A DNA stretch of 16,147 nucleotides. Origin: Cyanophyceae cyanobacterium. GTDB taxonomy: Bacteria > Cyanobacteriota > Cyanobacteriia > Cyanobacteriales > JBHJGN01. Location of the stretch: NCBI GenBank assembly GCA_050331735.1, contig JBHJGN010000034.1, forward strand, positions 1 to 16,147, written 5' to 3'. The notes under the pieces were generated by a model. The model ran no database searches, was not told the origin of the DNA, and worked only from the letters and a program-made list of their open reading frames with translations. The stretch's first letter is position 1. Each line of letters begins with the position of its first letter. Positions 2,137-16,147 of the stretch are shown here, piece after piece. Made by a program: the position numbers and the translations under genes.

Positions 2137-2202
2137 CGTGTCTATATCCGTGAACAGTGAGCGGTCAACAATTAACAATCAGCAAGGAGCAATTAACAGT
2201 TC

Positions 2203-3168
2203 CTAACGACTCGTTACCAAGGCTTTTTCTTCCTCTAAGTCTTGGAATAGAGGAGTGCTTAAATATCGTTCGCCGAAACTGGGCTGAATCATGACAATTA
2301 ATTTGCCCGCATTTTCTGGGCGTTTGCCCACTTTAATCGCGGCGGCTAGGGCAGCCCCGGCAGAAATGCCGGAAAGTAAGCCTTCTTCGCGGGCTAAACG
2401 ACGACCAAAATCAAAAGCTTCGTCGTTAGTGACGGTGACAATTTCATCAATCATCTCCACATTTAAGACATCGGGCACAAAACCCGCACCGATGCCCTGA
2501 ATTTTGTGGCTGCCGGGACTGCCCCCAGAAAGAACGGGGCTATCGGTTGGTTCAACGGCGATCGCCTGAAAACTCGGTTTGCGTACTTTGATGGTTTCGG
2601 CAATGCCCGTAATGGTTCCTCCTGTGCCGACACCCGCAATCAAGATATCTACCTCTCCGTCGGTATCAGACCAGATCTCTTCCGCCGTTGTCGAGCGGTG
2701 GATTTCTGGGTTCGCCGGATTTTTAAACTGCTGGGGCATAAAGCTATTGGTCAGGGATGTAGCTAGCTCTTCAGCGCGGGCGATCGCTCCTTTCATACCG
2801 CCACTGGCGGGAGTTAATTCTAGCTGTGCTCCGTAAGCTTTCAACATGGCCCGTCGCTCTTTACTCATGCTTTCGGGCATAGTGAGGATGATTTTGTAGC
2901 CCTTCGCCGCCGCCGCCATTGCTAGTCCAATTCCTGTGTTACCAGAAGTCGGCTCGATCAAGACGGTTTGACCCGGGGTAATTAACCCAGCTTGTTCTGC
3001 CGCATTAATCATGTTCACTCCAATGCGGTCTTTTACTGAGGCAGCCGGATTCATGCTCTCTAATTTGACTACGATTTGAGCCAGACAGCCTTCCGCAAAG
3101 GGAATCGAATTTAAGCGCACTAAAGGAGTCTTTCCAACTAGTTCCGTGACATTATTCGCGATTTTCAT
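2203..3168 (-). CDS. cysK: Cysteine synthase A (O-acetylserine sulfhydrylase)
   Basis: SVKDRIG (PLP lysine), [22 protein letters not shown] and [10 protein letters not shown] motifs. Confidence 0.96.
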
Positions 3169-6741: not shown

Positions 6742-6960
6742 TCAGTAGTTTAAGAGTGTTAACCGGGAGCGGTCGTCTAACCAATCAAAGAGGCGGTCTA
6801 ATTGTTGGCAGGTGACTAAGCCGTATTGCCAGAGCAGCATGGGGATAGGAGCATTGAGTTCCTCTTGCTTCTGCATGACCAACTCGATTTCGGCAGCAGA
6901 TACCGTCAACTCATCCTGTAAAAATCGACCTAATTCCGTGACTTCATTCAATTCCATCAT
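6742..6960 (-). CDS. DUF2949 family protein
   Basis: FLQDEL...PMLLWQYGLVTCQQLDRLFDWL signature. Confidence 0.85.
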   Translation of the reverse strand: MMELNEVTELGRFLQDELTVSAAEIELVMQKQEELNAPIPMLLWQYGLVTCQQLDRLFDWLDDRSRLTLLNY

Positions 6961-7753: not shown

Positions 7754-8005
7754 GCTTGATTCGGTTTCCCAGCATCGCTCTAACCAGTCGGTTAACTCAT
7801 AACGAGTGCTAGCGAATTGCTGTATGGTACTGCGGAGCAGAATGGCATCGATGCAGTGATCGATTTCTACCCAGAGCGTGCCATCTTGAGGACACCAGCA
7901 GGAAATATTGAGTTCTTGCAGGCGACGATAGACGCTCCAGCGATCGCTGCGATGAATTTTGGCAACCTGACTGACGAAGGCATCAGGGCGAGTGATGTTA
8001 TTCAT
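7739..8005 (-). CDS. Asr1405/Asl0597 family protein
   Basis: [18 protein letters not shown] and LTDWLERCW motifs. Start overlaps the cysE end by 8 nt. Confidence 0.85.
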
Positions 8006-8708
8006 AATTTTGGGGGGTGTAGAGGGTTAATTTCTGTATCTGTTGTTCCAAATTTTCAATCCGCTCTAGTAGAGCGCGGATCACCTTGGCTTCAGGGTCG
8101 GGGAGTTTGCCGTGTTCGAGAGGGCAGCCATGACCCGTGCGGGAGACGATGCGACCAGGCACTCCTACCACTGTGCAATCATCAGGAACTTCCCGCAGCA
8201 CAATCGAACCCGCGCCAACGCGAACGTTATTTCCGATATTAATATTGCCTAGAATTTTGGCCCCAGCACCGACAACAACGTTGTTGCCTAGAGTCGGATG
8301 GCGTTTTCCCGTTTGTTTGCCGGTGCCGCCAAGAGTGACATTTTGATAAATGAGACAGTAATCTCCGACGATGGCGGTTTCGCCAATCACAACTCCCATG
8401 CCGTGATCGATAAACACTCCCTTACCAACCGTTGCTCCCGGATGAATTTCAATTCCGGTGAGTAATCTGCCCACCTGGGAAAGAACGCGGGGCACTAGAG
8501 GAACCTGCTGCTGCCACAGCCAGTGAGCGACGCGATGAAACGCCAGGGCATGAACGCCAGGGTAGCAAATCAGTACCTCTAGCCAATTCGTGGCGGCGGG
8601 GTCGCGCTCAAAGATAATTTTAAGATCTGTCCAGATTGTCAGCCCTGGTAGAGCGGCCCACCATTGGCGGGACTTTTGACCTCGGTTGATAGTTAGTATC
8701 TGTTGCAC
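7998..8708 (-). CDS. cysE: Serine O-acetyltransferase (nif-associated CysE/NifP)
   Basis: [29 protein letters not shown] and KRHPTLG hexapeptide motifs. GTG start, exact position uncertain. Confidence 0.93.
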
Positions 8709-8760: not shown

Positions 8761-9036
8761 TTATAGCAACTGCCGAAATGACCCCCTTCCCTGTCGCCCC
8801 AGGTTAGATTGATTAAGTTGCTTAAGCTGTACTCGCGGATTCAAAACTTAGACTAGAAGGGAGTTTGAGGGCCCTAAATTTTTTTTGAGGGGGTCAGCGA
8901 CTGGTATTTTCGCCAATGGGTCTGAGTATTATTTGGTTGAGGGATTAGTATTTGGTACTCACCGAGGATTTTTCTATATCCTAGTTAGGCTAAGACATAC
9001 AGCGTCATGCGATCACCAAAATTTGGGTACTCACCC
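8761..9036 (-). promoter_or_regulatory. Leftward (nifP/cysE) promoter module, putative CnfR/PatB cis-element
   Basis: TGCTATAA -10-like box at 8761-8768, TTAATCAATCTAACC at 8802-8816, three AATAC boxes at 22-bp period (8902, 8924, 8946), and TGAGTAC motifs at 8955 and 9027. Mirror of 9361-9628. Confidence 0.7.
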
Positions 9037-9095: not shown

Positions 9096-9144
9096 GGTTT
9101 AAAAATTGGTTGCTCGTCGGATAGCAAACTCAGCCGAAACAGAA

Positions 9145-9153
9145 TGTTAAATT
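9145..9153 (+). promoter_or_regulatory. Extended -10 element of the candidate sRNA
   Basis: TG-T-TAAATT fits TGnTAnnnT and predicts a TSS near 9160. Confidence 0.45.
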
Positions 9154-9159
9154 AGATAC

Positions 9160-9238
9160 GGATTCGAGACAAACCAAATTTCCGCAATTGAATTCCGTGA
9201 CAGCCCTGGAGGGGGTTGGCAGCCCTCTCCAGTTTTTT
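9160..9238 (+). ncRNA. Candidate ~80-nt trans-acting sRNA
   Basis: Bounded by an extended -10 and an intrinsic terminator, with no ORF. Segment 9185-9202 is complementary to five start regions in this window. Confidence 0.55.
9206..9238 (+). terminator. Rho-independent terminator with no upstream plus-strand gene
   Basis: CTGGAGGGGGTT-GGC-AGCCCTCTCCAG stem followed by TTTTTT (9233-9238) and CTTT. Confidence 0.75.
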
Positions 9239-9360
9239 CTTTCTCTAAACCAATACCAAACGAAGAACGAGCGCTATTTTTATTGATCTCTTTCCTCCTT
9301 ACCCTTTTCCCCAGCTCTAGTTCCGTGCAACCTCGACAAAGATAACTGGTGTCAAAAACA

Positions 9361-9628
9361 GGGTGAGTGCAGCAAATTCCTCCGGCAAATCCCCGGGCAT
9401 AAATAGCTTCAAACCCTCGTACTGACAAGGTTCAAGAGTGAGTGGGACAAATACTAGGAACTTTTGGAATAAATACTAACCCCCCAACGCGAAAATACTA
9501 GCGTCCTCCCCCCTAAAAAATTTTTCTCCTCATCAGGCAAGGGTTTGAGGGGCTGAGTCCTTTCTAAGTAGTTTAATCAAACTAACCGAGTGCAAGTTCT
9601 AGATGTCGCCAAAATCCGAGTGCTATAA
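9361..9628 (+). promoter_or_regulatory. Rightward (nifB) promoter module, putative CnfR/PatB cis-element
   Basis: GGGTGAGTGC at 9361, AAATACTA at 9449, 9471 and 9493, TTAATCAAACTAACC at 9573-9587, and TGCTATAA at 9621-9628. Confidence 0.7.
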
Positions 9629-9763
9629 CTCTCATAACGACATCGAACAAACCTGAATTTCACACGCGGTCAACTATTGCCTAACTTATATACGAGAAAT
9701 TTAGAGTTCGACGAATCCAATCTCAGTTCCTATCTTTATCCTTTATTTGCGGAATTCAATTCA

Positions 9764-11182
9764 ATGTCACCAACCACTACCACTCCCCTAGCGCCAGAGA
9801 CCAAAGCAAAGACTTCTAAAGGCTGCGGCTGCAGTTCCTCAAAGCCCCAACAGATTGACCCCAAAATTCAGGAAAGAATCGAGAAGCATCCTTGCTACAG
9901 CGAAGAAGCTCACCATCATTACGCACGCATGCACGTAGCGGTTGCTCCAGCCTGCAATATTCAGTGTAACTTTTGCAATCGCAAGTATGACTGCGCCAAC
10001 GAAAGTCGCCCTGGAGTAGTCAGCGAACTGCTCACTCCCGAAGAAGCCGCCCACAAAGTCCTCGTCATTGCTGGAAAAATTCCTCAAATGACCGTTCTGG
10101 GTATTGCTGGACCTGGCGATCCGTTAGCGAATCCGCAGCAGACCTTCCGCACCTTTGAATTAGTCGCCGCTGAAGCACCAGATATTAAACTGTGCTTGTC
10201 TACAAACGGGTTAATGCTTCCCAACTACGTGCAGCAGATTAAAGATCTCAACGTCGATCACGTGACGATTACCATTAATATGGTAGATCCCAAAGTTGGA
10301 GCTAAAATTTATCCTTGGGTACGCTACCAGCGCAAGCGGTGGAAAGGCGAAGACGCGGCTCAGATCCTCCACGAACGGCAGATGGAAGGCTTACAGGCAC
10401 TACAAGAAGCCGATATCCTCTGCAAAGTTAACTCGGTGATGATTCCCGGCATTAACGACGAACACCTGGTTGAAGTTGATGAGGTGATTCGCTCTAAGGG
10501 AGCCTTCCTACACAACATCATGCCCCTCATCTCTGCCCCCGAACACGGCACCTACTTTGGACTCACCGGACAAAGAGGACCGACTCCCAAAGAACTCAAG
10601 ACTCTCCAGGATAGCTGTTCGGGCAACATGAAGATGATGCGCCACTGCCGTCAATGTCGGGCGGATGCCGTGGGCTTACTCGGCGAAGATCGTTCTCAGG
10701 AATTTACCAAAGAGAAGTTCCTCGAAATGACTCCAGAATACAATCTGGAAAAGCGCCAAGAAGTTCATGCTGGCATCAAGCAGATCAAAGAAGCGATGCA
10801 GGCAGCTAAAGCTAAAAGAGCCGCCGAGAAGCAGCAGCGCGGCGAGAAAATCTTGGTCGCAGTCGCCACTAAAGGCGGTGGCGTGGTTAACCAACACTTT
10901 GGTCATGCTAAAGAGTTTCAAATCTTTGAAGTGGATGGCGTAGACACGAAATTTGTCGGACACCGCAAAGTTGACCACTACTGTCAGGGTGGCTACGGCG
11001 AAGACGCAACCTTAGACAATATTATTGGCGCGATTAAAGATTGCAAAGCTGTCCTCGCTTCCAAGATTGGCGATTGCCCTCAAGGAATGCTCAAGGAAGC
11101 CGGTGTAGAACCTGTACAGGGCTACGACACCATCGATACCCTAGCGCTTAAGTTCTACGAGCAATTCAAGCAGTCCAAGTAA
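9764..11182 (+). CDS. nifB: FeMo-cofactor biosynthesis radical-SAM protein NifB
   Basis: [17 protein letters not shown] (CxxxCxxC), [15 protein letters not shown] and a C-terminal NifX-like domain. ATG at 9764 preferred over TTG at 9677. Confidence 0.97.
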
Positions 11183-11714: not shown

Positions 11715-11741
11715 TTAGAAGTCACGGATTAATTGAGACTA

Positions 11742-14339: not shown

Positions 14340-15233
<894 letters not shown>

Positions 15234-15244
15234 CTAACGCTCAC

Positions 15245-15268
15245 AGGGAGGACGAGATGCTCCTCCCT
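15245..15268 (+). other. nifH-nifD intergenic stem-loop
   Basis: AGGGAGGA and TCCTCCCT form an 8-bp stem with an 8-nt loop. Confidence 0.6.
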
Positions 15269-15313
15269 CCCATTCCCACCGCCCAAATCCGATCATTCTA
15301 AGGGGATAACATC

Positions 15314-16147
15314 ATGTCAACTGTAGAAGAGAACAAAAAACTGATAGAAGAGGTTCTAGAAGCCTATCCAGAGAAGGCAGCCAAAAAGCGGGAAAAGCAC
15401 CTCGGCGTTCATGAAGAAGACAAATCCGACTGCGGCGTTAAGTCCAACAAAAAGTCGGTTCCGGGAGTAATGACCACCCGTGGTTGCGCCTATGCTGGAG
15501 CAAAGGGAGTTGTTTGGGGTCCGGTCAAAGACATGATCCACGTCAGTCACGGGCCGGTCGGCTGTGGTTACTACTCCTGGTCTGGTCGTCGTAACTACTA
15601 CATCGGCACTACTGGGGTCGATACCTTCGGCACCATGCAGTTTACCTCCGACTTTCAAGAGCGAGATATCGTCTTCGGCGGTGACAAAAAACTGGCTAAG
15701 CTTATCGATGAACTCGAAGTGCTCTTTCCCTTGAGCCAAGGAACCACCATTGAATCCGAATGTCCGATTGGCTTAATTGGAGACGATATTGAAGCCGTCG
15801 CTCGCAAAAAGGCGAAAGAAACAGAAAAACCTGTCGTTCCAGTTCGTTGCGAAGGATTTAGAGTAGTTTCCCAGTCGCTCTGACACCACATCGCTAACGA
15901 TACCGTTCGAGACTGGGTTCTGCCCAAAGCCGACGAGTACCGCAAGACTCCTGAAGGATTTGAACCCGGCCCCTATGATGTCAACATTATTGGTGACTAC
16001 AACATTGGTGGAGATGCTTGGCCCAGCCGGATGCTGCTCGAAGCGATTGGCTTGAGAGTGATCAGCCAATTTTCTGGAGACGGCACCTTTAACGAAGTCG
16101 TCATGACTCCCCTCGCCAAACTGAACCTGATTCACTGCTATCGGTCG
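15314..16147 (+). CDS. nifD: Nitrogenase MoFe protein alpha chain, partial, with an in-frame TGA at 15881-15883
   Basis: RGCAYAG, HGPVGCG and [11 protein letters not shown] motifs. After the TGA the same frame continues [27 protein letters not shown] to the window end. Confidence 0.95.

Follow-up and report, generated by a model that had tools for sequence, protein, structure and literature searches.

A candidate small RNA gene in the nifP-nifB intergenic region of cyanobacteria, predicted to pair with the start region of nifB

The stretch of DNA analysed here (the window) is the entire contig C34, 16,147 nt in length, of a 5.57-Mb cyanobacterial genome, and it carries a nitrogen fixation (nif) cluster with two divergent arms. 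Within the 1,056-nt spacer between cysE (nifP) and nifB, positions 9145-9240 are likely to be a small RNA (sRNA) gene with its own extended -10 promoter and intrinsic terminator; the RNA would act in trans by base pairing through a conserved, unpaired seed at its 5' end, AAUUGAAUUCCGUGAC. The seed is predicted to pair with the nifB mRNA over a Shine-Dalgarno-like GGA up to the AUG, and with the nif-linked DUF2949 mRNA around its start, while nifP would be paired in other lineages and nifS and cysK possibly in the window genome. Such pairing would block ribosome binding and lower NifB synthesis, and the sRNA would act as a post-transcriptional brake on iron-molybdenum cofactor (FeMo-cofactor) and sulfur-supply genes. 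We regard the covariation of the seed with the nifB translation-initiation region in related genomes as the decisive evidence for the predicted base pairing. With somewhat less assurance, we favour a wider reading in which an old sRNA, present across the order in the nifP-nifB control region, gates translation of NifB together with lineage-dependent sulfur-supply genes (nifP, nifS or cysK) and the nif-linked DUF2949 gene, and would be the first known post-transcriptional regulator of cyanobacterial nitrogenase assembly.

Anatomy of the candidate sRNA gene

The original prediction placed a seed at 9185-9202, just before a terminator, and proposed that it is complementary to five mRNAs. All five complementarities are present when the seed is compared with the mRNA-sense strand, and every coordinate and pairing was verified. 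The seed 18-mer CAATTGAATTCCGTGACA lies within a conserved single-stranded 5' region, AAUUGAAUUCCGUGACAGCC (9185-9205, plus strand), and is immediately followed by a hairpin with a 12-bp stem (9206-9232) and a T-run. A terminator scan identified this structure as a Rho-independent terminator at 9206-9238 on the plus strand, composed of the 12-bp stem, a 3-nt loop and TTTTTT. Across 35 distinct homologues, 91.9% of the cells of the terminator stem are paired and compensatory changes occur at 5 of the 10 pairs; the observed covariation score was reached by none of 500 shuffles.

Upstream of the seed, an extended -10 promoter element, TGTTAAATT, is predicted from the sequence at 9145-9153 (plus strand), with no clear -35. 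In most members of the family the pattern TGnTAwwTT precedes the conserved GATACAGAA by about 7 nt, and the box itself follows an A-run. The order common to the members is the extended -10 box, the conserved 5' GATACAGAATTGAATTYCG about 7 nt later, and then the hairpin and T-run. The element thus has the make-up of an independent transcription unit, being intergenic and possessing a conserved predicted promoter and a covarying Rho-independent terminator. A second box, TAGCAAA (9122-9128, plus strand), precedes the TG of the extended -10 by a fixed 16 nt and is present with identical spacing in 5 of the 27 upstream sequences compared (the window, L063, L062, L059 and L072). Its putative function is possibly that of an activator or sigma-factor contact. 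An NtcA site was also considered for GTTAAATTAGATAC, which resembles GT-N10-AC; it was rejected by inspection, as the spacing from box to seed varies and the box is missing in some members, and the sequence is better explained as the extended -10.

The predicted transcript, with its 5' end placed from the -10 box, spans 9158-9240 on the plus strand and is about 80 nt long. A covariance model (R1) was built from 15 sequences and applied with a match threshold of E <= 0.01; it matches the window at 9179-9240 with 67.9 bits (E 6e-15). In the 15 aligned sequences the seed columns TGAATTCCGTGA are invariant or near-invariant and remain unpaired in the consensus structure. The predicted RNA of most relatives is only about 60 nt long with the seed at its extreme 5' end, while the window version contains an insertion of about 25 nt with a degenerate first copy of the seed (9176-9187), as do a few relatives. 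A 5' extension with a first seed half-copy is also seen in G043, L016 and G029. The 5' end of the window sRNA, ACGGAUUCGAG (within 9158-9198), resembles the target motif. The lowest-energy fold of the window RNA comprises the terminator hairpin and a 5' stem in which ACGGAUUCGAG is paired with part of the seed, and this predicted pairing may be a built-in mask of the seed. Searching the whole window on both strands with the Rfam 15 covariance models at E <= 1 gave no match, whether to Yfr1, NsiR9 or any other family.

Pairing of the seed with nifB

The predicted nifB target site with its start codon, UUGCGGAAUUCAAUUCAAUG, is located at 9747-9766 on the plus strand and spans a GGA triplet which could serve as a Shine-Dalgarno element. 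In the window, 9747-9761 forms 15 contiguous pairs with the seed, two of them G-U, covering positions -17 to -3 relative to the ATG at 9764. A seed-nifB duplex of 11-15 contiguous pairs is present in all 21 genomes in which both partners could be read, usually starting at about -11, crossing the GGA and ending with the AU of the start codon (+2). As a control, 123 start regions of other cluster genes were compared with the seed; none reaches 11 pairs and the maximum is 10. In terms of duplex energy, nifB reaches -16 kcal/mol or lower in 16 of 18 genomes, or 17 of 18 after correction of one mis-called start, and the same threshold is met at none of 17 fdxN, 14 nifU, 16 nifH, 15 nifD and 17 nifV genes. 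The absence of a comparable complementary site at the nifH and nifD starts of the window, which had been claimed before, is thereby confirmed.

At least five lineage-specific differences in the seed are accompanied by matching differences in the nifB site, so that complementarity to the initiation region of the target is maintained by compensatory change. Most genomes combine the seed UUGAAUUCCGUGA with the nifB site UCACGGAAUUCAA. Four genomes of family f7 have the seed UUGAAUUUCGCA and the site UGCGAAAUUCAA, a matched change of UUUCGCA with UGCGAAA, and one genome has UUUCGCUA with UAGCGAAA. Two further genomes, with UGAAAUUCCGUGGU and ACCACGGAAUUUCA, have one base inserted on either side. 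The seed AUCGAAUU is found with the site AAUUCGAU in one Epithemia diatom endosymbiont, and its Rhopalodia sister has AUUGAAUU with AAUUCAAU. The unmatched differences between seed and nifB site are transitions which keep a G-U pair (the window, L015, L060 and L064). Seed-target covariation in relatives, proposed as a check in the original prediction, is thus present at nifB. The location of the nifB site at the ribosome-binding region points to repression; we infer from the sequence both repression, rather than activation, and the condition that would induce the sRNA.

Distribution and genomic setting of the sRNA

When relatives were searched with the entire spacer, the seed block was seen to be kept in other families independently of its flanks. 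A strict seed-plus-terminator pattern gave 13 cyanobacterial loci or records, among them Coleofasciculaceae, Xenococcaceae, Pleurocapsa, Gomphosphaeria aponina, Aphanothece hegewaldii, the unicellular SU2 and five endosymbionts of the diatoms Rhopalodia and Epithemia. R1 matches 28 of the 151 sampled genomes of the order. In a phylum-wide sample, also of 151 genomes, R1 matches were obtained in 12, one of them outside the order; this last match (G227) lacks both the T-run and a nif context and was discarded as spurious. The sRNA ranges over unicellular and pleurocapsalean forms, family f7, which may be the heterocystous lineage, and the reduced genomes of diatom endosymbionts. The latter were reported as 2.8-3.0 Mb in our searches, and retention of the element in such reduced genomes argues for a function.

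The association with nifB is close. A nifB match was found in 24 of the 28 R1-positive genomes as compared to 57 of all 151 genomes sampled from the order, and 18 of the nifB-bearing R1-positive genomes have the sRNA on the nifB strand, 0.35-1.3 kb upstream of that gene. The order cysE <- sRNA -> nifB is present in most loci with enough flanking sequence, and the distance from the sRNA terminator to the nifB ATG is 346-713 nt (ten loci). The sRNA is not strictly nif-specific, as shown by unlinked second copies and by four carriers without a nifB match, namely G132 and G149 (both with strong R1 matches), Aphanothece hegewaldii (G154) and a Microcystaceae genome (G155). In the Crocosphaera-like clade (SU2, the diatom endosymbionts and G044) there are two copies, one at nifB and one far away, which favours action in trans.

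The second copies located far from nif genes are those at L013, L017, L018, L020, L022 and L023 (endosymbionts and SU2) and at L076 (G044 contig C8). In L013 and L023 the second copy sits after the same large open reading frame (ORF; start MQS.DVTTLTA...), and in L013, which is from the Rhopalodia gibberula endosymbiont, it adjoins ORFs that look peroxiredoxin-like and Fur-family-like, as judged by eye from their translations. At L024/L073, from a metagenome-assembled genome of Pleurocapsa sp., the sRNA is beside the cysE-DUF2949-nifV arm and no nifB is present within 10 kb downstream, so that this cluster appears to have undergone an insertion or rearrangement. The locus L003 (G038 contig C62) shows a promoter box and ATTGAATTCCGTAA on the minus strand at about 330-420, with no recognisable terminator and no R1 match, and may represent a degenerate copy.

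The surroundings of the sRNA gene are those of a known control region. In the accessible parts of the published descriptions, which are the basis of all comparisons with CnfR elements made here, these elements, located 5' of both nifB and nifP, consist of three TGAGTACA repeats together with A/C-rich motifs placed between the second and third repeats (bioRxiv 10.1101/2025.04.01.646610; PMC8510180). A CnfR-type enhancer module of nifP/cysE is found in the window at 8828-9034 on the minus strand, with (T)GAGTAC repeats at 9026-9034, 8954-8962 and 8828-8835. The corresponding module of nifB, together with its likely core promoter, is at 9364-9629 on the plus strand, downstream of the sRNA terminator; its elements are TGAGTGCA at 9364, TGAGTGGG at 9439, TGAGTCC at 9554 and TGCTATAAC at 9621-9629, from which a putative position of the nifB transcription start follows. 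As the repeats are positioned on either side of 9145-9240, the sRNA gene lies between two enhancer modules, and the layout agrees with the published arrangement for nifP and nifB. One plus-strand repeat and two minus-strand repeats are exact in the window and the other copies are degenerate. Six of nine other loci examined have the sRNA followed by three plus-strand repeats, spaced about 72 and 117-127 nt apart, and then nifB. Three of these six also have three minus-strand repeats upstream, toward nifP, and the remaining three of the nine loci have only 1-2 exact repeat matches. Considered by themselves, the two TGAGTRC-type arrays (8828-9034 on the minus strand and 9364-9560 on the plus strand) are mirror images that flank the sRNA gene.

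The seed itself was considered as a CnfR motif and rejected, since the TGAGTACA repeats and the A/C-rich motifs map elsewhere and none falls within it. The CnfR cis-elements (repeats 1A-1C and A/C-rich 2A/2B; motifs I-IX in Leptolyngbya boryana) share this intergenic region with the sRNA and are conserved in the same organisms; the sRNA gene is immediately adjacent to repeat 1A of the nifB module. Unlike these elements, the sRNA block has a different sequence, lies outside the 1A-1C interval, possesses a promoter and a terminator, and covaries with a distant mRNA site. It might overlap one of motifs I-IX or CS1-CS3.

This arrangement could also be explained by a leader or insulator acting in cis. 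In that case the terminator would shield the nifB enhancer against transcription arriving from upstream, the seed on a read-through RNA would fold back over about 520 nt onto the nifB ribosome-binding site and serve there as a long-range anti-Shine-Dalgarno element, and the short RNA would be a by-product. The element shares its strand with nifB and always closely precedes it, at the terminator-to-ATG distances given above, and its complementarity and covariation suit pairing in cis as well as in trans. However, both the published Anabaena mapping, in its accessible part, and the motif positions in the window place the CnfR repeats and the nifB core promoter downstream of the terminator, so that the main nifB mRNA would not include the seed. 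Moreover, copies far from nifB or in genomes without a nifB match cannot act in cis, and the opposite-strand targets DUF2949 and nifP require trans action. We therefore consider a purely cis-acting element improbable and retain the trans-acting sRNA as our explanation.

Further candidate targets, chance matches and known systems

The nif-linked DUF2949 gene is the second conserved candidate target. Its target region in the window (6932-6960, minus strand) has an 11-nt perfect complement of the seed, GUCACGGAAUU, at 6932-6942, and a second near-complement over the likely start, AUGGAAUUGAAU, at 6946-6957 with one mismatch in the window. This two-site arrangement is common to the window and its nearest relatives. 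The duplex reaches -16 kcal/mol or lower in 9 of 16 genomes, down to -30.9, and usually crosses the AUG into the untranslated GUGCUGUC, which is paired with GACAGCAC located between the seed and the terminator. Since this part of the pairing is untranslated, codon constraint cannot account for it. Non-nif DUF2949 paralogues in five genomes are without such sites. At least 8 of 22 other genomes have the sequence CACGGAAUUYR directly 5' of the nifP/cysE start codon, and in one of them the nifP site UCACGAAAUUCA matches the seed UUUCGUGA; the site is absent from the window and its closest relatives.

Three more sites were proposed in the window. The one in the 5' untranslated region of nifS, GUCACGGAUUAAUUG (GTCACGGATTAATTG), is located at 11721-11735 on the plus strand (-21 to -7) and is partly conserved: GAUCACGGAAUUUAU occurs upstream of nifS in L077 and L079, the two loci showing a related site, and the nearest relative has the degenerate version GUCACAGAAU. 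The cysK site (3142-3151, minus strand) is a 10-nt perfect complement within the coding region, from +18 to +27. The last is a weak 7-nt complement (2147-2153, minus strand) upstream of an ORF starting at ATG 2136, which itself matches 2Fe-2S ferredoxin models weakly and below the cut-offs.

Several controls were used to judge how far chance could produce these sites. There are exactly four mRNA-sense copies of the heptamer TCACGGA in the two arms, at 11722 on the plus strand and at 2147, 3143 and 6935 on the minus strand, and a count over both arms bears out the claim that each is no more than 30 nt away from a start codon. Its remaining copies are the one in the sRNA itself (9194) and an antisense copy inside nifS (12174). 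Of the 21 start regions in the window, 6 give a duplex of -16 kcal/mol or lower, compared with a mean of 1.43 and a maximum of 5 for 300 shuffles of the seed; none of the shuffles reached 6. For the genome-wide target scan, counts of contiguous complements were used instead of duplex energy. Four of the 54 listed sites of at least 10 nt fall in the window contig, which makes up 0.29% of the genome, and these are the sRNA gene itself, nifB, DUF2949 and cysK; the excess is a local one, restricted to the nif cluster. Outside the window, the best sites were dismissed because they seem to lie inside longer genes, acyl-CoA dehydrogenase-like and pyruvate formate-lyase-like by eye.

It remains evenly balanced, in our judgement, whether the sites at cysK, at the ferredoxin-like ORF and possibly at nifS are coincidental or a consequence of V/I-T-E-L codons, with only nifB and DUF2949 as real targets; such an outcome is compatible with the sRNA explanation. 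In its favour, the relatives with a cluster cysK retain I-T-E-L with other codons and lose the pairing, the ferredoxin match is 7 nt only, shuffled seeds still average 1.43 of 21 start regions, and the start of the pentapeptide-repeat gene scores -17.7 kcal/mol without any rationale. Conversely, the 6 of 21 exceed every shuffle, the four heptamers are all close to start codons, a similar nifS site is present in another, Crocosphaera-like clade, and the targets share a sulfur and Fe-S theme. Only at the cysK and ferredoxin sites is chance a reasonable explanation.

A number of observations weigh against a regulon of this kind. The nifS duplex has -19.5 kcal/mol in the window, which is the only one of 17 genomes to reach -16 kcal/mol or lower at this gene. 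In the two relatives with a cluster cysK, the ACG codon is replaced by ACA or ACC, both synonymous threonine codons, and the pairing is lost (-7.0 kcal/mol each); the synonymous-site conservation that the original prediction had proposed to look for at cysK is thus absent, and this site is specific to the window genome and could be either a young target or a chance match. At the ferredoxin-like ORF, 3 of 11 relatives reach -16 kcal/mol or lower, at unrelated positions, and the site is not conserved. Three of the five targets proposed in the window are therefore poorly or not conserved. A pattern search for targets in G132, G154 and G155, three of the carriers without a nifB match, yielded no convincing gene. 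On the genome-wide scale, 55 complements of at least 10 nt were observed as against a shuffled-seed mean of 71.5, showing no enrichment, and a duplex-energy scan gave 4141 sites at -16 kcal/mol or lower, so that energy alone is unspecific. Since related genomes are not independent, the matched changes at nifB count as about five independent compensatory events and not as 21. Transcription of the sRNA and its 5' end are predictions from the sequence, and the 5' stem of the modelled fold could lower seed accessibility in the window genome. As to novelty, literature searches with the seed string and with nifB and sRNA terms found no paper describing the element, and the primary literature of the region may already mark the block as an unexplained conserved motif. 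Taken together, what stands of the original proposal of a cluster-encoded sRNA regulon is the conserved sRNA-like gene, the nifB covariation and DUF2949, and a fixed set of five genes does not stand, with nifS only partly conserved and cysK and the ferredoxin-like ORF not conserved. Its matches surpass shuffled seeds at the start regions of the window and fail to do so genome-wide.

The recurrence of the motif raises one more explanation, in which TCACGGAATTCA and its reverse complement are operators of a DNA-binding regulator and the lineage-specific changes reflect drift in protein specificity. The motif does recur near several nif genes and in a regulatory intergenic region, and it includes the palindrome GAATTC. 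However, the published CnfR elements differ from it and map elsewhere. Its sites are at the start codon or in coding sequence rather than at promoters, and are always in mRNA sense near start codons, though nifB and nifP are on opposite DNA strands. The targets also make use of different stretches of the RNA, nifB using UUGAAUUCCGUGA and DUF2949 extending through GACAGCAC into the foot of the terminator. In addition, the unmatched differences are G-U compatible transitions, and the motif forms part of a unit whose promoter is conserved and whose terminator covaries. A protein-binding site, which had been named as the fallback should the sRNA fail, is thus very improbable, and base pairing by an sRNA accounts better for these features.

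sRNAs consisting of a seed and a terminator are a well-known kind; the present family and its nifB target appear to be new. The comparisons below are limited to the accessible parts of the sources, except where the searched material is named. The closest analogues in action are NfiS and NfiR of Pseudomonas stutzeri A1501, which pair with nifK and nifD mRNA (PMC6606865; PMC6755748; PMC9170634). Like the predicted window RNA, they are trans-acting, pair directly with nif mRNAs and set nitrogenase output post-transcriptionally. They have no sequence relation to it and are species-specific, in contrast to a family spread across many cyanobacterial families. They are encoded outside the nif cluster and stabilise or activate the structural genes nifK and nifD, whereas the window RNA is encoded inside the cluster and would target the cofactor gene nifB at its ribosome-binding site. 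sRNA154 of Methanosarcina mazei similarly acts on nif-related mRNAs (nifH, nrpA and glnA; PMC9170634), but it is archaeal, unrelated in sequence, mainly stabilising and directed to other targets. IsaR1 of Synechocystis, a Fur-controlled iron-stress sRNA which represses Fe-S genes such as sufBCDS (PMC8634477), is also a short cyanobacterial sRNA acting on Fe-S-related mRNAs, with a similar Fe-S and sulfur target theme. The window RNA is set apart from it by promoter and context only, its promoter being unlike the Fur box of IsaR1 (Table S7, PMC8634477) and its location being the nifP-nifB spacer instead of the crtH operon.

NsiR1, NsiR3, NsiR4, NsiR8, NsiR9, NsrR1 and Yfr1 are likewise short RNAs that end in intrinsic terminators and contain conserved unpaired motifs, some of them being nitrogen-responsive (PMC4734099; PMC9170634), but none is reported in the accessible text to target a nif mRNA. 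Yfr1, NsiR9 and Cyano-1 are classed as known RNA families, Yfr1 with an RF accession (PMC12873609). Neither nifB nor all1517 is mentioned in the supplements of the Nostoc sRNA survey (PMC4734099), and a 2022 review of sRNAs in nitrogen metabolism gives, in its accessible text, no cyanobacterial sRNA that targets a nif mRNA (PMC9170634). A 2026 survey of 202 cyanobacterial genomes describes RNA structures upstream of nifH and nifK and contains nifB once, in the reference list (PMC12873609).

No control region of cyanobacterial nitrogen fixation has been studied as closely as the nifB-nifP intergenic region, which has so far been interpreted solely as a transcriptional switch dependent on CnfR. 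With a conserved sRNA between the enhancer modules, a post-transcriptional layer would be added at nifB, whose product carries out the first committed step in making FeMo-cofactor, and the natural seed and target variants across lineages provide ready-made compensatory mutants. It would also give the first functional handle on the nif-linked DUF2949 gene. The nif cluster of Leptolyngbya has been moved into Synechocystis with this intergenic region kept (PMC5943405). Where present, the sRNA would travel with such a transferred cluster and could limit NifB production, which, if true, would make it a hidden component.

The remaining genes of the window are arranged around the sRNA gene as follows. 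The plus-strand arm carries nifB (ATG 9764), fdxN, nifS (11742), nifU, nifH and the 5' part of nifD. The minus-strand arm begins with cysE/nifP (7998-8708), an Asr1405-family ORF, a Dps/ferritin gene and DUF2949 (6742-6960), continues with nifV, nifT, a 4Fe-4S ferredoxin gene, two ORFs of unknown nature and cysK (2203-3168), and ends with the weakly 2Fe-2S-like ORF (1570-2136), ArsC and the pentapeptide-repeat gene.

In the nifD frame starting at ATG 15314, codon 190 is an in-frame TGA (15881-15883) within the stretch SQSL*HH. NifD homology continues past this codon in the same frame up to the contig end, corresponding to residue 275 of a relative's NifD. The TGA may stem from a nonsense mutation or a sequencing error, or mark a decaying copy. 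A second nifH-3'/nifD copy lies at the end of G000 contig C25, where positions 27749-29195 are about 89.5-89.7% identical in DNA to window positions 14735-16147 and nifD is full length (480 residues aligned). With both nifHD copies at contig ends, either there are two nifHD sets or a diverged duplicate caused the assembly to break. Heterocyst-forming strains are known to carry insertions within or ahead of nifD. Among the related loci, the nifD start of L065 (G093) lies about 3.5 kb past the nifH start and nifD was not found within the locus L058 (G006), which suggests insertions in or before nifD at these two loci.

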